The notes beneath the pieces are model-generated. The model had not been told where the DNA came from. It saw only the letters and a list, made by a program, of their open reading frames with translations, and made no database searches. A DNA stretch of 64,000 nucleotides from a phage, in sequence record PQ374922.1; one strand, written 5' to 3'. The position numbers and the translations under genes were made by a program. Shown here one piece after another: positions 7,024-55,535 of the stretch. Each line of letters starts with the position of its first letter. Position 1 is the stretch's first letter.

Positions 7024-7565
7024 TGTTTACAGTCGTCGTTTCATACCATGCGGAGAACGCTGCTCAGGCATCCTCCAAATTCGCCGAGCACATCATCGGC
7101 GGCGGACATAATGTATTCCTTACTGAATACAACAGGCCTGTTAAACCGGGCGACGGTCTTTCGGCGACTGTTACGCATAAGATCGCCAGCGAGCAACCAG
7201 AGTCTCTGTTCAGGATGATCGAAGAGTATGCCGGTGGTGGCACCAAGATACCAGATGAACTGGTAGACGTCTATTTTGAAGGCTCGATCTATTACATCCA
7301 CGCTATGCCAAAGGATGTAACCATTGAACAGATGATGTATATCCTGAATATAGCACTGAACACTGCGTGCATCAACCGCACGAACTACAACAATCTGCGC
7401 AATATGTACCTAACCGACCGGCATAATGACGCATCGTCGCTTGTTGAGACAATGTCCCTGAAGAGCATCCAAGAGGCGGTTAACATTTTGTCCCAGAAGG
7501 TTATGGGTGTAGAATTATTAACGACGATCAACAATAAAGAGGAAGTGAAATGGCCAGTTCATTAA
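7023..7565 (+). CDS. Hypothetical protein (180 aa)
   Basis: ORF translationally coupled (TAATG) to the upstream gene; no motif recognised. Confidence 0.5.
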   Translation: MFTVVVSYHAENAAQASSKFAEHIIGGGHNVFLTEYNRPVKPGDGLSATVTHKIASEQPESLFRMIEEYAGGGTKIPDELVDVYFEGSIYYIHAMPKDVTIEQMMYILNIALNTACINRTNYNNLRNMYLTDRHNDASSLVETMSLKSIQEAVNILSQKVMGVELLTTINNKEEVKWPVH

Positions 7566-8635
7566 TGGACCGCATGCTGAAGGTTGCTAAGAAACACGAT
7601 GACCAGGCTTCAGTGCTGTCCAAATCCGACGCTCTGGAACCGTCTATCATCTGTTCTACTGGTATTCCCCTGATCGATATCGCATGGTCTGGGCGTATTG
7701 ACGGCGGTCTGATCTCCGGTATCAAGATGATGGTGGGTGATTCCCGTACCTTCAAAACGATGTTCGGTCTGGTAGACGTCAAGGCGTACATGGACAAGTT
7801 CCCTGATGCTATCTGCGTCTTTGCGGACTCAGAAAAGGGTGCCAACGCCGATTACTGGACCTCTATGGGCATTGACATGGACCGCGTCCTGTACGTACCG
7901 ATCGACAACGTTGAACAGACCAAGATCCGCTTGCTGCAGATCCTACAGGAAGTCAAGAAAGGCGACCATGTTATAATCTTCATCGACTCTATCAGCCAAC
8001 TTCCCTCCACCAAGGAAGTTGAAGATGCGATCAAAGGGAACGACACTCAAGACATGACCCGCGCCCGTGCCCTTAACAGCTTCTGGCGTGTCATGACTCC
8101 CGAAATCAACAGCAAAAATCTCGTGTGTGTTTGGATCAACTCCTATTACGATGAGATCGGCAACCAGTATGCCGAGCCCAACATCAAAGGCGGCAAGCAG
8201 GGCTTCTTATCCTCCAACTTGATCTGGTTTATCACCCGTTCTCAGGTGAAGGAAGACAAAGATCTGCTGGGCTGGAACTTCAACATAAGCATCATGAAAG
8301 GTCGCCATGTCAAAGAGAAAGCCAAGCTCCCTGTGACGGTACTGTACAACGGTGGTATTGATCGCTGGAGCGGCCTGCTTGAGATCGCTCGTGCTCTGGG
8401 TTATGTTGATATGCCGTCTTCCGGTTGGTATGTGCGTACAGCCAAGGGTGGTTTCGATCCTGAGAAGGAAAAGAAATATCAAAAGCGTCAGATGGATGAT
8501 GATTTCTGGTATCCGCTGCTGGAGAATGTCAACTTCGCCGATGACGTGAAGAAAATGTTCGGTGTTTCTAACGGTACTGTTATGCCTGCTAACATGCTGG
8601 AGCAAATGGACCATGTTATCAACACAAGCGAATAA
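7550..8635 (+). CDS. uvsX: UvsX RecA-like recombinase
   Basis: Strong similarity by eye to T4 UvsX: FADSEKGANADYWTSMGIDMDRV, IIFIDSISQL, DMTRARALNSFWRVMTPEI. Confidence 0.9.
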   Translation: MASSLMDRMLKVAKKHDDQASVLSKSDALEPSIICSTGIPLIDIAWSGRIDGGLISGIKMMVGDSRTFKTMFGLVDVKAYMDKFPDAICVFADSEKGANADYWTSMGIDMDRVLYVPIDNVEQTKIRLLQILQEVKKGDHVIIFIDSISQLPSTKEVEDAIKGNDTQDMTRARALNSFWRVMTPEINSKNLVCVWINSYYDEIGNQYAEPNIKGGKQGFLSSNLIWFITRSQVKEDKDLLGWNFNISIMKGRHVKEKAKLPVTVLYNGGIDRWSGLLEIARALGYVDMPSSGWYVRTAKGGFDPEKEKKYQKRQMDDDFWYPLLENVNFADDVKKMFGVSNGTVMPANMLEQMDHVINTSE

Positions 8636-8954: not shown

Positions 8955-9437
8955 ATGTTAACACAACAGTCTCTTAAAGAAATTCTGCATTACGACGAAG
9001 ACACTGGGTGGTTTACATGGCTGACGGATCGTGGTGGTACTGCCAAAGCCGGAACAAGAGCTGGGTCTTTAAAACCTGACGGATACAGGGTTATAAGAAT
9101 CGGCGAGAAGAAGCATTTAGAACACAGGTTGGCATTTCTCTATAAAACTGGTTCATGGCCAAAGAAATTGGTCGACCACAAAAATCGTATAAGAGACGAC
9201 AACCGCTGGTTGAACCTTAGAGAATCTAATGAAAGCCAGAATGCCGTCAACACAGATTTGTATAGCCACAACACCACAGGCGCGAGGGGTGTATTTCGAT
9301 ACAAGAATAGATGGTGTGTGCAAATCAGAGTTAATGGGAAATATAGATCGTTTGGGTATTACGATGAATTCGAAGAAGCAAAGGAAATGGCGAACAAAGC
9401 CTACAAAGAATTGTTCGGAGAATTTTATCAAGGTTAG
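8955..9437 (+). CDS. HNH homing endonuclease with AP2-like DNA-binding domain
   Basis: GYRVIRIGEKKHLEHRLAFLY...VDHKNRIRDDNRWLNLRE (HNH) and GVFRYKNRWCVQIRVNGKYRSFGYYDEFEEA (AP2-like); inserted between the uvsX block and gene 41. Confidence 0.85.
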   Translation: MLTQQSLKEILHYDEDTGWFTWLTDRGGTAKAGTRAGSLKPDGYRVIRIGEKKHLEHRLAFLYKTGSWPKKLVDHKNRIRDDNRWLNLRESNESQNAVNTDLYSHNTTGARGVFRYKNRWCVQIRVNGKYRSFGYYDEFEEAKEMANKAYKELFGEFYQG

Positions 9438-9477: not shown

Positions 9478-10902
9478 ATGTTACTCGAATCTGTCGTGCT
9501 TTCACAGTTGATTTACAATGAAGATTACCAAAGAAAGATCCTGCCGTACCTGAAAGCCGATTATTTTGACAACGAAGGCGAAAAGGTCATCTTTGGTCTG
9601 ATTGACAGTTATACCTCAGAGTACAATGCCCGCCCGTCTGTCGAAGCACTATCTATAATTCTTGAACGGACAAAGCTGAACGAATATGTGTTTGACCAGG
9701 CGGTATCTGCCCTGGAGAACATCAACGACAACACCTTCAATGAAGAGTGGCTGGCGAAGGAAACCGAGGCTTGGGCGCGGCAAAAGGCCGTACACAACGC
9801 AATCAAGACCGCCGTTAACATCTACGGTGACGAGAAGCGCAAGGACGAGATGAACAACATCCCGACCATGTTGCAGGAAGCCCTGGCGATCCGGTTTGAT
9901 TCATACCTCGGTCACATCTATTGGGAGATGGCGGCAGAGCAGTATGACCACATGAACTCCAACGAGGCCAAGATCCCGTTCGCAGTTGAGATATTCAATA
10001 AGGCGACACGTGGTGGCGTTGGTAAGAAGACACTGAACATCGTAACAGGTGCGATCAACGCAGGTAAGACCACAACGCTGATTGACCTGACCGCAGGGTA
10101 CTCTGAGCAGGGGCTGAACGTCTTTGTCTTCACCCTTGAAGTGGCTGAGAACGTCTGGCGACACCGTCTTGATGCCCGTATCATGCGTCGCGACTTTGAG
10201 TCTTTAGAGAAACTCACAAGGCACGAGTATATTGCAACGATAGAGAAGCTCCGCAGTCGCCAAGATGGTGCGCCCAAGGGTGATATCGTCATCAAGGAAT
10301 ATCCTTCCGGTACTGGACACACAGGTTTATTCCGCCGCGATATCCTTGAGTACATCCAGGCAACTGGTCGTGCTCCTGATGTTATCGTTATTGACTATCT
10401 TGGCGAAGCTGCTTCCTCGCGCCTGCCTGCCCACCTGATGCAGAACACGAACGTCTATTACACGTCTGTGGCTCGTGAGTTTCGTGCGCTGGGATTTGAG
10501 TTTGATGTCCCTGTATGGACTGGTATGCAGTTCAATCGTGAGAATCAGAATAGCACTGATGGTGGAATCAGTGATTTGGCAGATGCTATCGGTATTCCGA
10601 AGGTGGCCGACTTCATCATGGCATTCTATGCTCCTGACGAACTGGCGGCGGTCAAGAAAGCCCGAGCCTCAATACTCAAGAACCGTTATGCCAACAAGCA
10701 GAAGCTGAAATCATTCCTGTTTGGTATGGACCAAGACAAACAGATCCTGTTTGACCTGGACTGGAATGAAGTTAAGAAGGACCTGACTGAGGCTGAGGCC
10801 AAATATGTCGAAAACGTACACATCAAACATGACCTCAACAAGTCCGGGGCTGCTGTCAGCGATGAGCAGAAAGCCCAAACGGTCAATAATTGGAAATTCT
10901 AG
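9478..10902 (+). CDS. 41: Replicative DNA helicase (gp41, DnaB-like)
   Basis: 474 aa; Walker A GAINAGKTTT; DnaB-like architecture; synteny with uvsX. Confidence 0.9.
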   Translation: MLLESVVLSQLIYNEDYQRKILPYLKADYFDNEGEKVIFGLIDSYTSEYNARPSVEALSIILERTKLNEYVFDQAVSALENINDNTFNEEWLAKETEAWARQKAVHNAIKTAVNIYGDEKRKDEMNNIPTMLQEALAIRFDSYLGHIYWEMAAEQYDHMNSNEAKIPFAVEIFNKATRGGVGKKTLNIVTGAINAGKTTTLIDLTAGYSEQGLNVFVFTLEVAENVWRHRLDARIMRRDFESLEKLTRHEYIATIEKLRSRQDGAPKGDIVIKEYPSGTGHTGLFRRDILEYIQATGRAPDVIVIDYLGEAASSRLPAHLMQNTNVYYTSVAREFRALGFEFDVPVWTGMQFNRENQNSTDGGISDLADAIGIPKVADFIMAFYAPDELAAVKKARASILKNRYANKQKLKSFLFGMDQDKQILFDLDWNEVKKDLTEAEAKYVENVHIKHDLNKSGAAVSDEQKAQTVNNWKF

Positions 10903-11632: not shown

Positions 11633-11651
11633 GTCAATCGAACACCAAGAA

Positions 11652-11675
11652 GCCCAGTCAAGTACTGGGCTTTTT
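11652..11675 (+). terminator. Rho-independent terminator
   Basis: gcccagt-caagt-actgggc stem-loop followed by TTTTT. Confidence 0.6.
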
Positions 11676-11759
11676 AACTTCAATAACTTTACTTTCAAGA
11701 AATAATCGCCTAATATTTAATCTGTATTGAAGAGTTACAACTACATCATGAGGCTGGAA

Positions 11760-12953
11760 ATGAACGTCAAAACATTCAATATTCCGATCGACAATGAAGG
11801 GTTGGTAGTTGAGCGACTGAAGAAGCTCGAGCGCACTGCCGAAAGGTTGGGTGTTCCGTTTCCGACTGTGACTTATGGTGAACCCTTCAAAACCCACACC
11901 CGCGACTTCACTGGTGAGATCCTTACTCACTGGTGGAAACCTGTTACTCTCGAAGGCGAAGGCATTGACCGCCCCATCTCTTATGGTGGCTGGAAGATCA
12001 TCGGTCAGTTCAATCACGAATATCCAAAGGTTATTCTTAACCGCCTGTCCGACAACATCAATCCCGACTTCATCCGTCGCTTCGAGGCAGAGAACGTCTC
12101 TTGGTGTCAGCATTGCAATCTAGCCATCCGTCGCAAGAACACATATGTGATTGAAAATGAGGAAACGCACACCCAGATGCTGATTGGTAGCACCTGTATG
12201 CATCATTATGTGCCTCATCAGAAGTCCCTTGACGCGATTATGTCTTACTATCTGGAAATCCAAGAGTTCTTCATGCCAGACGAGGACGACCCAGAGGGTA
12301 TATATCGCGTCCAAAATGAGCGCTTCACCGACACCCACAGTTACCTGCGCGCATGCTTCCAGGTAATGCTGGCAGGCGTGGATATCAAGTCTGAACTGTT
12401 TGACAAAGTACTGGGCTATGTCCGGTCTCACCAGAAACCAAAAGCAGGTTCCGATGAAGAGTATTTCGTAAACAAGGCACACGAATACCGTGAAGATGCC
12501 GAGTCGGAAATGTACCATATGAAGCTCTTCATCAGTGCGCTGTCCGAATCCAATGAGTTCAATGTCCGCCTGAAACGCATGTGTGAACCCGGCTATCACC
12601 TCATCAAGGATAACAACACAGTCCGCTGGGGTGCCAAGAAGTATTACGATTACATCCATCGTCCTCGTACTGACCGCAAGGCGGAGAACAAATGGGTGGG
12701 CGAAGTCGGTGAAATGCTGGAAGTGCAAGTCAGGTTCGACAAGCGCACCTTCCTCTTCTCCAATGAATATGGTGATAGTTACCTGTTTACTTTCAAAACA
12801 GCAGAAGGCAATACAATTACATGGAAGACCTCTTATATGGATACAGAGTTCTTGCAGGGCGATATGATCATCCGTGGTCGTGTCAAAGAACTGACTGAGT
12901 ACAACGGCGTTAAACAAACTCAGGTCACCAGAGCCAAATTGAGGAAATTATGA
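11760..12953 (+). CDS. Hypothetical protein with Cys/His cluster (putative zinc-binding), about 397 aa
   Basis: CQHCNLAIRRKNTYVIENEETHTQMLIGSTCMHH; ATG at 11760 with GAGG RBS (the ORF table allows a TTG at 11727). Sits where gene 61 would be in T4, but no Toprim motif was found. Confidence 0.55.
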   Translation: MNVKTFNIPIDNEGLVVERLKKLERTAERLGVPFPTVTYGEPFKTHTRDFTGEILTHWWKPVTLEGEGIDRPISYGGWKIIGQFNHEYPKVILNRLSDNINPDFIRRFEAENVSWCQHCNLAIRRKNTYVIENEETHTQMLIGSTCMHHYVPHQKSLDAIMSYYLEIQEFFMPDEDDPEGIYRVQNERFTDTHSYLRACFQVMLAGVDIKSELFDKVLGYVRSHQKPKAGSDEEYFVNKAHEYREDAESEMYHMKLFISALSESNEFNVRLKRMCEPGYHLIKDNNTVRWGAKKYYDYIHRPRTDRKAENKWVGEVGEMLEVQVRFDKRTFLFSNEYGDSYLFTFKTAEGNTITWKTSYMDTEFLQGDMIIRGRVKELTEYNGVKQTQVTRAKLRKL

Positions 12954-13066
12954 ATTTAATTGAGTTTGTCCTGAAGTCGTTCGCCTTTGGTCTGATAGCA
13001 TGCGGGATGATTACAGCTGTGCTTCTCATCATAGCCCTGGTCATCCCCTTTAAGAGGAAACGTTGA
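12950..13066 (+). CDS. Small hydrophobic protein (38 aa, one TM helix)
   Basis: ATGA overlap with the upstream stop and TGATG overlap with the downstream start; GAGGAA RBS; sequence MNLIEFVLKSFAFGLIACGMITAVLLIIALVIPFKRKR. Confidence 0.4.
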   Translation: MNLIEFVLKSFAFGLIACGMITAVLLIIALVIPFKRKR

Positions 13067-13278
13067 TGGAATGTTCATGCGGAGGGCAGGGCACAAGTGC
13101 TTACCTGCCATTCACCACTGTGAAGGAAGCCGAAGCCGCTGGATTTGCCGTGGACAAGGCTCCCTGTGTAATCGCCACGAAGGATTGCCCGTGCTGTAAG
13201 AGGCACTCTCAGGACGTCTTCTACGCCCCTGATGCGCGTCCGGCTACGGTCAACCTGCTCTCACTGATGAGGAAGTGA
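13066..13278 (+). CDS. Small Cys-rich protein (about 70 aa)
   Basis: CSCGG...CPCCKRH motifs; translationally coupled to the small TM ORF. Confidence 0.45.
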   Translation: MECSCGGQGTSAYLPFTTVKEAEAAGFAVDKAPCVIATKDCPCCKRHSQDVFYAPDARPATVNLLSLMRK

Positions 13279-13452
13279 CATGCGCGAGTATTTCAACTGG
13301 CTGTTGGGTAAGCCCCTGATGCGCTGAGATCCGTTGTCTAATCGATGCCATTGACGCCCGACAACACAAGCGCCGGATTAATCACACAGAGGCTCAGGCC
13401 GAAATTAAAATCGTGAAGAAGTCCACAAGGCTCTGGGTTTCATAACAAATAA

Positions 13453-13485
13453 TTCAATAAACTATTCACCCATATAATACATGGG
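13453..13485 (+). promoter_or_regulatory. Early-promoter stem-loop (TTCAATAA, then cccat-ATAATAC-atggg)
   Basis: Same architecture as at 10907, about 25 nt upstream of the 13507 ATG. Confidence 0.35.
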
Positions 13486-13506
13486 AACTTACAGAAGGAA
13501 CAGACC

Positions 13507-44187: not shown

Positions 44188-45423
44188 TCAGCGTTTCAAG
44201 AGTGTCATGAGGTTGACGCTGCTGGACTTCGGCTTGTCCTCAACCTTGCGCACAGGCATCTTCAGGTTCGTACATACCTCGGACGGTTCCCAGCGCGTAC
44301 CCTTTTGCAGGTGCCAGATATGCAGAGGAACACCAGTCTCAAAGAACACAGGCATCTTCCACTTCTGGACGCCTGGAACGTGCCCTACAGGAGCCTTTTC
44401 GCACAACAGGGTATCTGGCAGCCAGAGCGAACGGGCTTCCCAGAGCGCTGCGCAGGAGTATTCAGGCCAGACGCGTTCCATGTAGTCTATCTCATCCCAG
44501 GTACGCTCTGCGTCCCACCCGATGTAACGGGTATTCTTCAGTCGGAAGAATTTCTTCAGCCAACAAGCGCCGGAGGTTTCAAAGTTCAGGCGGTTGATGA
44601 ACGTCAGGTGCCCGAACTCAGCCACACAATCCTGGAACGCCTGCTCAAGGTCGGCCTCAAGGATGTCACACTCTTCATCCGTGATAGCACAACCGTTGAT
44701 CTTTTTCTTCCCGTGTTTAGTCACCCAATCGTCACGGTTGGACAAGAACGCCGCGCCATTACGGTTGGACTCGCTTCCATCACGATCACGCAGCATGAAG
44801 CCAGGGACGTCAATGGTGTATTCGTTCCCGAAGACCATGTTCAGGGCTTCCAGGAAGTTCCAGGCGCTCAGGCGACCGAAGTATTTCCAGGACATCGCCG
44901 TGTCCCACAGCTGGGTGAATTGTTCTGTCTTATCGATGCACACCAACATCCCACGGAAAGCGTCATATTGAGTACGGCCAGCCAGCCAGTCAATATAGGA
45001 CTGAACACACGGGATCATCTTGGACTTGCGGTAGCGACAGTCGGTATCGAATCGCATGCGTTCAAAGTTCAGATTATACCAATCAGAGAAGCGCTGCATC
45101 TCTTCCTTAGACTGAGGCGGCACAGGGAACTCACTGTAGATCGTCCACGGTCCGACGGCGTTATAGCAACAACCCCACAGGAATGCCATCCAGATCTTGC
45201 GCTCGACTTTCTGTTCGAGGCTGATGCCTTCAGTGACTTCGATCGCATAGTCCATCAGACGCATCTGCTGGTTGTGCTCTTCTGTGTAGGACAGCGCCTC
45301 CACCCAAGCCTTGAGCAGGTACATGCGATTCTCAGGCTTGCGATAATCAACAGCCAGGTCAATCGGGTACTTCCATTCAGCCGGAGGCGTATAGCCCGTC
45401 GGCATTTTAGATAAATGATGCAT
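44188..45423 (-). CDS. Hypothetical enzyme-sized protein (411 aa, Trp/aromatic-rich)
   Basis: Long ORF, last in an operon with the P-loop kinase; no nucleotidyltransferase KxDG or other motif recognised. Confidence 0.6.
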   Translation of the reverse strand: MHHLSKMPTGYTPPAEWKYPIDLAVDYRKPENRMYLLKAWVEALSYTEEHNQQMRLMDYAIEVTEGISLEQKVERKIWMAFLWGCCYNAVGPWTIYSEFPVPPQSKEEMQRFSDWYNLNFERMRFDTDCRYRKSKMIPCVQSYIDWLAGRTQYDAFRGMLVCIDKTEQFTQLWDTAMSWKYFGRLSAWNFLEALNMVFGNEYTIDVPGFMLRDRDGSESNRNGAAFLSNRDDWVTKHGKKKINGCAITDEECDILEADLEQAFQDCVAEFGHLTFINRLNFETSGACWLKKFFRLKNTRYIGWDAERTWDEIDYMERVWPEYSCAALWEARSLWLPDTLLCEKAPVGHVPGVQKWKMPVFFETGVPLHIWHLQKGTRWEPSEVCTNLKMPVRKVEDKPKSSSVNLMTLLKR

Positions 45424-45784: not shown

Positions 45785-45984
45785 TTTGGTTCCTTGAATA
45801 TTTTGTAACCAGCAGCGCCGATAGACATCACCGCGCCAATACAGTACATCACAGTCACGTTCAACTTCTCTGAGGTTGTTAAGTCCAGAGGGGTGAAATG
45901 ATAGGCTAGGGCAGTACACATTGAAACGGCTGCCATAACCAGACCAATGAACAACAGATAATTAGACAACCGTTTCATGATCAC
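45781..45984 (-). CDS. Small membrane protein (67 aa, two TM helices)
   Basis: LLFIGLVMAAVSMCTALAY and VMYCIGAVMSIGAAGY; coupled to neighbours on both sides. Confidence 0.45.
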   Translation of the reverse strand: MIMKRLSNYLLFIGLVMAAVSMCTALAYHFTPLDLTTSEKLNVTVMYCIGAVMSIGAAGYKIFKEPK

Positions 45985-46898
45985 CCCTTCTTCATCAGGT
46001 CAAGGAGAGAGCGCGACGCTGCCTTCGTTGCTTCTGGCTGGGCGCTCGCCTTGGTTTTAGTTTTGGATGCCTTCTGCGGCTTCTCAGGGACTCTGTGCGC
46101 CAAAGGATCATGGCCGCCAACCTCACGAGTCATCGGATTGGTTTCACAGTAGGCGTAGAAGTCTTTGGTGTGTATGTCAACACCACGCAGTTCAGAGCGT
46201 ATCTGATGACAAATCGCATTACCCACAACCCACAGCGGGGCGTCGAACGGTAGTACCGCCAACTCGGACTGCTGTTTGGTCGTGAACTCCTGGGTGTTGG
46301 CATCCGGTGATTTATACAGGATATCCTGTCCGCTGTAATCATCAACAGCCACAGTGAAGCCCAGCGCCAGCATTTCGGCCTTCGACTTCTCAAACTCCTT
46401 GTAGTAAGATTCGTTGCGCGACCAGCCGGAGTTCCCTGCTTCTTTACCAGATCGACCACGGATACGAGCATCGTACTGATAGCGGTCGGGGTACGCAAAG
46501 TACAGCAGCGCCAATGATTCAATCGGATAGTTCTTGAACATCCATTCAGGACGCCATTTGTCCGACAGCATGAGAGGTTCGCCCTCGCACACCAGAGTGT
46601 ATCCCTGAACCAACCAGCACTTGATTAGATCACGAGCAATATCGCCTGAGCCTGTAGCAGCATGGATTGCATCCATTGAAGTCCAGGAAGCCAGGCCGGA
46701 TTTGTTAGACACGGTGTACTGTCCAACGAAGATTAACTTCAGCTCTCCGAACTTCAAGCCAAACGGGCGAGTCTTGTCACCAACGGTGTAGGTCAGTTCG
46801 GTAGGCTCCAGCTTCGTACGGAGCCATTCGATGAACTGGACCACTCTCGTACCCTTGCCCGTGGCCGAGGTGCCTTTCACTACAATTATTTTAGCCAT
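45981..46898 (-). CDS. P-loop kinase-like protein (305 aa) with Lys/Ala/Thr-rich C-terminal tail
   Basis: N-terminal Walker A VKGTSATGKGT; no HAD DxDGT motif, so not a T4 Pnkp-type bifunctional enzyme. Confidence 0.6.
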   Translation of the reverse strand: MAKIIVVKGTSATGKGTRVVQFIEWLRTKLEPTELTYTVGDKTRPFGLKFGELKLIFVGQYTVSNKSGLASWTSMDAIHAATGSGDIARDLIKCWLVQGYTLVCEGEPLMLSDKWRPEWMFKNYPIESLALLYFAYPDRYQYDARIRGRSGKEAGNSGWSRNESYYKEFEKSKAEMLALGFTVAVDDYSGQDILYKSPDANTQEFTTKQQSELAVLPFDAPLWVVGNAICHQIRSELRGVDIHTKDFYAYCETNPMTREVGGHDPLAHRVPEKPQKASKTKTKASAQPEATKAASRSLLDLMKKG

Positions 46899-54272: not shown

Positions 54273-55466
54273 TCAGGAAGGGGTGAATTCGTTTACAGGT
54301 ACTGCTTCGGGGATAGCCAGTTCAGGACATGCTGCCTTCATCGGCTCGATGTATGGCTTGCTACCCACAATCCAGAACAGAGTGTTCTCGTTGAGCAACT
54401 CGGGCTTGTGTTGCTGAACCCAGGTCATGACCTTGCCTTCATAGCGAGGGTGCAACTCAATATCACCCCACTGATATTCCATCAGGTCATTGTAACGAAC
54501 CCAATTAGTGGTATGAAGATCCCAATGGTGTACCTCAAAGCGAGGAAGCACGACCTCTGGCTCTTCCTTCTGCCTGATACCACTTAGGAGGCCAGCCAGC
54601 GAAACGCTCTTAGAGGCATGCTGAAGCTCCTTCTTGCCGTGTACATAGTCTGGGTTGTCGTGATAGCGACGGGTGAAGTCGACAATGTGCGGCAGATTGG
54701 CATGTTTGCCGATGATGCGCAGACGGCTCTCAATGAAGTCCAGGCGGTTCGGACCGATGCCAATCAGATACACACGCTTCAGATTAGGCTTCGGATGCAT
54801 TGCCAGCCCGGTCAGAATGCTTGTGCAAGAGTTGCACGATCCGGCTGGGATAATCAGATCGGTAATATGGTCAGGGATGTTGGCAACCTGCTCGCCACCC
54901 AGCATATGGAAGCCAGCGATGCGCTCAGGAGAATGCGCTGTATGGTCGAGGGTGATACCATATTCCAGATAATACGCCTTTGGATTCTGTTGTTCGATCA
55001 ACTTCTTACAGCGCGGCTGGATCGTGCTGTTGTAACCCGAGCCGACGAAGTTGAACTCACTACCAAACCAGGCTGACATTGCCACCATGTCGTGGTTCAT
55101 ACAGGTGGTGGGTTTGGTCGCTCCGAGTACAGTGGTTGTCTTGCCGCCGAAGTGCCGAGAGACTGCTGTCGCCATAGGGGACTGCGGACTACCAACGACA
55201 GTACCATGGATGATGTCAGGGGAGCCTCCGGCCTTGAGGTGCTCAACCATCAACCAGATGGCCTGGCGGAGTTTGCTGCCGTTGATGCCCTGCTGGCCAT
55301 TTGCATAATTGGATAGCGGCGCAAAATAATCTTCACGCTTGAACCAGACCTGCTGGTTGGTTTCGGGGTTGACGACAAGTTCGCACGGGGTGTGCTTGTA
55401 GAGATAATCTTCCCAATGGACCAGGTTGCGGTCGAGGGAAAGGGTATCGAAGATGGTCTTGTTCAT
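54273..55466 (-). CDS. PLP-dependent enzyme of the tryptophan-synthase-beta fold (ACC deaminase / D-cysteine desulfhydrase-like)
   Basis: WFKREDYFAPL...NGSKLRQAIWLM (cf. DcyD FIKRDD...GGNKLRKLEFL, with Lys as the PLP-binding residue) and Gly-rich IIPAGSCNSCTS (cf. IPVGGSNALG). Confidence 0.6.
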   Translation of the reverse strand: MNKTIFDTLSLDRNLVHWEDYLYKHTPCELVVNPETNQQVWFKREDYFAPLSNYANGQQGINGSKLRQAIWLMVEHLKAGGSPDIIHGTVVGSPQSPMATAVSRHFGGKTTTVLGATKPTTCMNHDMVAMSAWFGSEFNFVGSGYNSTIQPRCKKLIEQQNPKAYYLEYGITLDHTAHSPERIAGFHMLGGEQVANIPDHITDLIIPAGSCNSCTSILTGLAMHPKPNLKRVYLIGIGPNRLDFIESRLRIIGKHANLPHIVDFTRRYHDNPDYVHGKKELQHASKSVSLAGLLSGIRQKEEPEVVLPRFEVHHWDLHTTNWVRYNDLMEYQWGDIELHPRYEGKVMTWVQQHKPELLNENTLFWIVGSKPYIEPMKAACPELAIPEAVPVNEFTPS

Positions 55467-55535
55467 TCTATTTCTCCTGTAGACATTGGCTTATCATAGC
55501 GTATCTACAGGAATATAGAAAAGGAGAATCTCGGA

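Follow-up and report, generated by a model that had tools for sequence, protein, structure and literature searches.

A predicted zinc-finger and OB-fold protein, almost certainly not a primase, encoded downstream of the gp41 helicase gene in an Agtrevirus-like phage

Which protein is encoded downstream of helicase gene 41, where T4 carries primase gene 61, in the phage of sequence record PQ374922.1? In the 64,000-nucleotide stretch analyzed here (the window), this place is held by a gene for a protein of 397 amino acids (aa), which an earlier sequence-only reading had taken to be either a primase that has diverged very far or some other factor that occupies the locus. Nucleotide matches around the locus identify the phage as an Agtrevirus-like member of the Ackermannviridae; over the 4.5 kb surrounding the 397-aa gene the window is 99.3% identical to Escherichia phage YX22 (OR776998.1) and 91-98% identical to the Agtrevirus-like phages Ag3, PC3 and vB_CECAV_050. 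The gene does lie downstream of gene 41 as described, although it is not adjacent to it, because a 111-aa open reading frame (ORF), a 104-aa ORF and a hairpin intervene (Table 1). We find it nearly certain that the 397-aa protein is not a primase, and the second option is the one borne out, a gp61 homologue being encoded elsewhere. From its sequence and its predicted structure, we consider it fairly likely that the protein is a nucleic-acid binder.

A canonical gene 61 was found in the close relatives, outside the region that corresponds to the window. The annotated DNA primase of vB_CECAV_050 (PQ306799.1, 55431-56489) contains the motifs CPLC...CHNC and VVEGPID, and the same gp61 homologue is present in YX22 (54425-55483), PC3, Ag3 and all of the other close relatives. 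This protein matches PHROG 47 'DNA primase' (E 2.8e-80), aligns over its full length with the solved T4 primase (8dvf_H and 8gao_G, E 1e-42) and is 29-30% identical to T-even gp61 over 100% of its length. A tblastn search for a primase within the window found none, and the alignment with YX22 places the primase approximately 15.5 kb outside the window, to the left of its first position. From these relatives, up to 99.3% identical to the window at the locus, the exact genome studied here is also expected to encode a full-length gp61 homologue.

The 397-aa protein itself has none of the features of a primase. Its five cysteines are at positions 116, 119, 146, 199 and 275, and the CxxC...C-x-HH cluster that had been noticed in the absence of Toprim motifs is indeed present, as CQHC at residues 116-119 followed by C146-M-H148-H149; there is no EGxxD motif, and the sole DxD (DED at 174) lies within an acidic loop. 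Neither a Toprim domain with its conserved Glu and DxD nor an archaeo-eukaryotic primase (AEP, or PrimPol) fold with its acidic triad and His was found in the sequence or the predicted fold. Searches of Pfam, NCBIfam and PHROG returned no primase match for the protein, and alignment of its family with the gp61 homologue of this same phage group by hhalign gave a probability of only 0.4%. However, the genuine gp61-type primase also lacks a match in Pfam (E <= 0.01) and NCBIfam (E <= 1), so that a missing Pfam match is weak evidence in this phage group, and this gap in coverage of the Ackermannviridae primase could mislead automatic annotation. With gp61 encoded elsewhere and no primase-like fold at this locus, the primase reading fails the test that had been set for it beforehand.

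The notion of a very divergent primase, or of a degenerate HNH-type nuclease built on a zinc-finger beta-beta-alpha scaffold, draws on the zinc motif and the location downstream of gp41, on a weak PADLOC match of aa 108-166 to the HNH protein PtuB (E 0.005) and on one BFVD match over 115 columns that was automatically named 'DNA primase/helicase'. Besides the findings just described, neither an acidic triad nor the His/Asn of HNH nucleases is conserved, and the positions that would hold the HNH Asp-His are Arg in the family; we regard the chance of either identity as minimal. An active HNH nuclease was also considered in its own right; the hairpin of the finger conserves Arg123 and Arg125 rather than Asp-His or Asn, and the PtuB match is marginal. 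The zinc-finger region weakly resembles the L36 zinc ribbon (PDB profile) as well as PtuB, and both matches reflect a shared zinc scaffold only.

AlphaFold2 models of the full protein (predicted local distance difference test score, pLDDT, 78; predicted template modelling score, pTM, 0.44) and of residues 1-182 (pLDDT 80, pTM 0.60) agree on the parts from which the protein is built: an alpha/beta domain, a zinc-finger element, a helical domain and an oligonucleotide/oligosaccharide-binding (OB) fold. An acidic disordered loop of low pLDDT (aa 172-191) comes before the helical domain, and the segment 157-191 as a whole has an isoelectric point (pI) of 4.05 with 10 Asp and Glu residues. In the modelled zinc-finger element, the knuckle C116-x-H118-C119 is followed by a beta-hairpin (128-143) and a helix that starts at 144, placing C146 and H149 at the helix start. 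The metal site is probably a treble-clef finger, in which the knuckle would supply two ligands and C146 and residue 149 two more, as judged from the motif and the model.

Conservation was assessed in 166 diverse homologues, each less than 50% identical to the query. Residues C116, C119 and C146 are 100% conserved, H118, R125 and G143 are 99% conserved, and R123, which is Ile in the window phage, is found in 90% of the homologues. At position 149 the window phage has His, where 80% of the homologues have Asp and 8% have Glu; the fourth ligand is thus not universal (D/E/H), and H118 could stand in as a ligand or else be important for function. Zinc binding is plausible on these grounds. Within the OB fold, W355, K376, T387 and R391 are 98-99% conserved, Q386 92% and H378, which is Leu in the window phage, 91%. 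No catalytic constellation (acidic triad, His-Asp, or HNH-type Asp-His/Asn) is conserved in this set, and the near-invariant residues are limited to the metal ligands, H118, the Arg residues of the zinc finger and the OB signature. The OB segment is basic (pI 9.3), and its model shows the five-stranded OB topology and matches RPA, single-stranded DNA-binding protein (SSB), the RecG wedge domain and PriB. PHROGs 3628, 30451, 27218 and 4095 carry the same OB module, with the signature GTVKEHxEYxGxKQTxLTRxK, by itself at their C-terminus. A 265-aa KP15-like protein shares only the OB fold with the 397-aa family (hhalign, 98% probability); in Klebsiella phage phi1_146007 (L017:3512-4309) it carries the KEHGEYKDVKQT signature and is encoded in an early region adjoining ndd and rIIB.

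The 397-aa protein matches the PHROG 2319 profile almost from end to end (residues 1-396 against positions 1-398 of 399), and all 40 diverse homologues tested belong to the same PHROG. A profile built from 18 close homologues retrieved 8,519 representative clusters (50% identity) at E <= 1e-3 and 4,347 at E <= 1e-10; among the 150 best matches listed, almost every one was a full-length protein of 370-430 aa. Carriers include all Ackermannviridae genera examined, the schizo-T4 Vibrio and Aeromonas phages KVP40, nt-1, Aeh1 and phiAS5, Cronobacter phage S13, phiCbK-like phages of Caulobacter, the Ralstonia jumbo phage RsoM2USA, Streptomyces phage KimJongPhill, Rhodococcus phage Finch, Ruegeria phage RpAliso, Tunturiibacter phage Tunturi_5 and gut phages. 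The gene has already been deposited as 'hypothetical protein' in hundreds of genomes and in PHROGs, and with approximately 8,500 clusters in phages of enterobacteria, Vibrio, Caulobacter, Streptomyces and the gut, PHROG 2319 is among the larger phage protein families without a Pfam model. The domain map and the short list of near-invariant residues now make this family testable.

Database searches beyond PHROGs gave little. There was no sequence match to the 397-aa protein in Pfam, NCBIfam or PDB, and PADLOC returned only the marginal PtuB match. Pfam scans of the 40 diverse and 10 unusually long homologues revealed no informative fusions, PDB sequence searches with profiles of two alignments gave only noise-level matches to L36 and cytochrome b562, and a search of IMG/VR with a single distant family member found no related loci. 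In BFVD the relatives were uncharacterized, save for the match automatically named primase/helicase and two matches to ssDNA-binding proteins of the OB type (ssDNA, single-stranded DNA). The literature searched held nothing on the function of the protein: a proteomics paper on Vi01-like phages does not assign a function to the homologue, and the hypothetical proteins that mass spectrometry detected in Sajous1 virions do not include the homologue (gp41 is absent from the list; PMC10892097), a point in favor of the proposal that follows.

The basic, aromatic-bearing OB fold, the Arg-rich hairpin of the zinc finger and the lack of catalytic residues together make non-catalytic binding of single-stranded nucleic acid the most likely activity, in which the zinc finger and OB fold would jointly grip ssDNA. 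The fixed place of the gene in the replication and recombination block of the Ackermannviridae (uvsX, gp41, the 397-aa gene, ligase and gp59, with conserved synteny), together with its coupling to the ligase-associated module described below, favors a helper function at the ssDNA intermediates that arise in replication, recombination or nick sealing. Assignment to any such pathway is tentative, and we think it rather doubtful when taken on its own. More speculatively, a site of action near the membrane is suggested by the 38-aa membrane peptide, to which the gene is coupled in a conserved manner. Taken as a whole, the proposed function, in which the protein binds single-stranded nucleic acid without acting as an enzyme and so helps replication, recombination or the sealing of nicks, seems to us about evenly poised between right and wrong.

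Of the genes that follow, the one for the 70-aa protein gave the clearest positive side finding. The sequence-only reading had described a 38-aa transmembrane peptide and a Cys-rich 70-aa protein, coupled to the large gene through ATGA and TGATG overlaps, and this description is accurate. The start of the 397-aa gene is supported by a GAGG at 11750-11753, upstream of the ATG at 11760, and by homologues that begin at the same Met. At its 3' end ('aaattATGAatt') the ATG at 12950 overlaps the TGA at 12951-12953, and at the next junction ('cgtTGATGgaa') the TGA at 13064-13066 overlaps the ATG at 13066 (TGATG, 13064-13068); both overlaps are retained in Vi01 and Klebsiella phage Menlow. The 38-aa product is strongly hydrophobic (grand average of hydropathy 1.46) with a KRKR tail, and the 70-aa product contains six Cys. 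Homologues of the 397-aa, 70-aa and 38-aa products were found in 412, 279 and 218 phage records, respectively, and all three ORFs are kept in more than 200 Ackermannviridae genomes, indicating that they are real genes and that their sequence features are not due to chance. The small ORFs are conserved at least as well as the large one, being approximately 80-86% identical to their Kuttervirus counterparts compared with 70% for the 397-aa protein. In Vi01, Menlow (46 aa) and Serratia phage Kevin (38 aa) an equivalent membrane peptide comes after the homologue, in the last of these even though the large protein is just 34% identical.

The 70-aa protein is related to a part of DNA ligase. By BLASTP it is 48% identical (E 3e-21) to residues 1-63 of the 565-aa ligase of Kevin (Miltonvirus), with which it has the motif C-x-C...C...C-x-x-C in common, and residues 87-558 of the Kevin ligase align with the separate 476-aa ligase of the window at 53% identity. 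The same fusion of Cys-rich module and ligase is found in phiMAM1, and a PHROG search, in which the 70-aa ORF weakly matched the ligase N-terminus, is in agreement with it. Thus the Cys-rich module is separate from the ligase in Agtrevirus, Kuttervirus and Taipeivirus and fused to it in Miltonvirus, and the 70-aa protein is, by sequence, the N-terminal Cys-rich domain of the Miltonvirus ligase in free-standing form. The fusion suggests that the 70-aa protein very probably works with DNA ligase, and implies that it is a putative ligase-associated zinc module. This split and fused relationship offers a concrete clue to the function of a second orphan gene. In DNA ligase III, an N-terminal zinc finger fused to an ATP-dependent ligase serves as a nick sensor. 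The Miltonvirus fusion resembles this arrangement in that an ATP-dependent ligase begins with a small Cys-rich module, with no sequence relationship claimed; in the window phage the module differs in being a separate protein.

The 397-aa gene probably opens its own transcription unit. A GC-rich, terminator-like hairpin followed by a T-run lies between the ORF for the DsbA-like regulator and the 397-aa gene, where it would close the upstream unit of gp41 and regulator; its position and stem are kept in Ag3, Vi01 and Kevin, where the stem shows compensatory changes. The automated scan reported this hairpin on the minus strand only, and the plus-strand reading is taken from the sequence. A conserved TTGAA motif was noted 3' of the hairpin, approximately 45 nt ahead of the ATG. 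A scan for sigma-70 promoters gave no plus-strand site upstream of the gene, and the T4-type late-promoter motif (TATAAATA) occurs at only 2 sites in the 64 kb, neither of them near it. The ORF content within and after the small genes differs among relatives, indicating that the 3' end of the unit is variable. For example, positions 13279-13506 of the window are non-coding apart from one 16-codon ORF, as is also the case in vB_CECAV_050; in Ag3 and Vi01 an ORF of approximately 116 aa (orf00051) separates the 70-aa ORF from the next gene; and in Sajous1 an extra 66-aa ORF is inserted between the membrane peptide and the Cys-rich ORF.

Several observations weigh against an accessory binder of ssDNA intermediates, and some of them fit a different function. 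These phages already encode gp32, gp59 and UvsY; the pTM of the full-length model leaves the arrangement of the domains uncertain; the Ackermannviridae branch departs from the PHROG 2319 consensus by the loss of family residues (R123 to I, D149 to H and H378 to L); and Pfam, NCBIfam, PDB sequences, BFVD names and the literature searched yielded no homologue that has been characterized. Furthermore, PHROG 2319 has no link to replication genes outside the Ackermannviridae, and the neighborhoods of approximately 15 distant homologues contained no consistent partner gene. Among the Straboviridae, Aeh1, nt-1, V05 and S13 have a full T4 replisome, yet carry the homologue in the plastic gp24-uvsW region. 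KimJongPhill, Finch, Ccr2 and several metagenomic contigs have it within arrays of small genes of unknown function, and RpAliso and two large gut elements place it first behind an AT-rich non-coding region of 0.8-2.9 kb. The AT-rich regions of these three unrelated elements contain no tRNAs and look like early-promoter clusters; that of L010 has repeated elements of 27-37 nt containing TTGACA, and that of L027 has other AT-rich direct repeats. These contexts are what would be expected if the main rival were correct, namely that the protein is an early counter-defence or host-takeover factor. Such a factor would use its OB fold and its zinc finger to bind nucleic acid of phage or host origin, or else a host protein, and it might shield incoming DNA or block a sensor of the host defences instead of supporting the replisome. 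Gene arrays of the kind just described are typical of early or accessory regions, the T4-like phages carry the gene in a hyperplastic region, and the OB module by itself turns up in further proteins of early regions, the KP15-like protein among them. However, the homologues that supply this contextual evidence are just 20-25% identical or thereabouts, the best PADLOC match (PtuB) does not rise above noise and no other match to anti-defence or defence models does, and the position of the gene in the replication block is fixed in every Ackermannviridae genus examined, which would be unusual for a counter-defence gene with its fast turnover. We consider such a role unlikely on balance.

Two further alternatives have still less in their favor. 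An RNA-binding factor in tRNA repair, tRNA protection or translational control is suggested by the likeness of the OB fold to the anticodon-binding OB domain of class IIb aminoacyl-tRNA synthetases and of the N-terminal domain to ribosomal S6/S10 or KH domains, and RNA-repair genes do lie within approximately 3 kb of the homologue in Aeh1 (rnlB), nt-1 (a CCA-adding tRNA nucleotidyltransferase) and Ccr2 (RtcB). Nevertheless, the scores fail to separate these fold classes and the N-terminal matches are generic, and the repair genes are neither adjacent nor present in most contexts, including the Ackermannviridae, where the neighbors encode DNA enzymes; this function thus appears improbable. A RecT-like single-strand annealing protein is what GenBank records of vB_CECAV_050 and Tunturi_5 would indicate, in that homologues are labelled 'RecT-like ssDNA annealing protein', and the nearness of uvsX would fit a role in recombination. 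The RecT/Redbeta (Rad52-like) fold was not found, nor was a match to PF03837 or to any RecT, ERF or Rad52 model of Pfam at E <= 1, and because the KP15-like protein, which has only the OB fold in common, bears the same label, this looks like automatic transfer, leaving a RecT-like identity highly improbable. The gene after the helicase block should accordingly be annotated neither as primase nor as RecT-like, the Ackermannviridae having an ordinary T4-type primase.

How an accessory single-stranded nucleic-acid binder of this type would relate to known systems can be seen by comparison. With T4 gp61 and DnaG the 397-aa protein shares a Cys metal motif, a length in the range of approximately 350-400 aa and a location near the gp41 helicase gene, but it differs in lacking the Toprim fold, the E and DxD motifs and sequence similarity, and its zinc motif is CxHC...Cxx(D/H) rather than CxxC...CxxC. 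The combination of an OB fold with a zinc motif recalls the ssDNA binders RPA70 DBD-C, the internal domain of Mcm10 and T4 gp32, a likeness that for the 397-aa protein is one of prediction. In contrast to these proteins, to which it has no detectable sequence homology, its zinc finger is located approximately 170 residues upstream of the OB fold instead of inside or immediately after it, and it has additional N-terminal alpha/beta and helical domains; moreover, a separate gp32 is encoded by these phages. PHROG 2319 is thus composed of known kinds of domain (zinc finger and OB) and is novel in the order of its domains, in its extra domains and in the lack of a sequence link to RPA70C, Mcm10 and gp32. 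It is possible, though we think it improbable, that the family constitutes a new phage class of single-stranded nucleic-acid-binding proteins, with a treble clef and an RPA-like OB fold, present in thousands of lineages and distinct from SSBs of the gp32 type. If so, a nick or gap sensor that operates with ligase and the detachable Cys-rich module at a membrane-anchored site would be one candidate function, and shielding phage DNA from host defences early in infection would be another.

Table 1. Features of the window and of related loci. Positions are those of the window unless a locus handle (L) is given.
Feature	Position	Strand	Basis or remark
uvsX	7550-8635		followed by a small ORF, upstream of the gp41 block
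HNH/AP2 homing endonuclease	8955-9437		HNH_3 and AP2 domains
gp41-type DnaB-like helicase	9478-10902		
111-aa ORF, then 104-aa DsbA-like regulator ORF			between gp41 and the 397-aa gene
Terminator-like GC-rich hairpin and T-run	11650..11677	+	between DsbA-like regulator ORF and 397-aa gene
397-aa protein, PHROG 2319 (unknown function)	11760..12953	+	ORF list, raw sequence, PHROG E 9.1e-159
N-terminal alpha/beta domain, aa 1-111	11760..12092	+	generic two-layer sandwich
Zinc finger, aa 112-150	12093..12209	+	motif, conservation, predicted secondary structure
All-helical middle domain, aa 192-300	12333..12659	+	predicted secondary structure
C-terminal five-stranded OB fold, aa 319-397	12714..12950	+	signature W355, K376, Q386-T387, R391
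38-aa single-pass membrane peptide, PHROG 6569	12950..13066	+	start overlaps stop of 397-aa gene
70-aa Cys-rich protein, PHROG 4789	13066..13278	+	start overlaps stop of 38-aa ORF
113-aa ORF			between 70-aa ORF and DNA ligase
ATP-dependent DNA ligase, gp30-like, 476 aa	13962..15392	+	ligase annotation in relatives; identity to Kevin ligase
gp59 helicase loader	16094-16753		
Amino acid:DNA transferase	44188-45423	-	PF18724, E 1e-59
5-Hydroxymethyldeoxyuridine (5-hmdU) DNA kinase 2	45981-46898	-	PF18747, E 3e-157
Pyridoxal phosphate (PLP)-dependent enzyme	54273-55466	-	thymidine hypermodification gene
Fused ligase gene, Serratia phage Kevin	L014:8452-10149		Cys-rich module and ligase
Fused ligase gene, phiMAM1	L018:3501-5198		Cys-rich module and ligase
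AT-rich regions ahead of distant homologues	L010:5074-8001; L027:5332-7001; L025:4777-5605		three unrelated elements

Two further features of the window were noted. The thymidine hypermodification genes typical of ViI-like phages are present, all on the minus strand. In addition, the homing-endonuclease gene upstream of gp41 looks like a mobile insertion; it is missing at the same site in most close relatives, in which megablast matches begin at window position 9478, and in Ag3 and vB_CECAV_050, where it is likewise not present, only 7 nt separate gp41 from the preceding ORF. A homing endonuclease is found at the site upstream of gp41 in pSal-SNUABM-02 as well.

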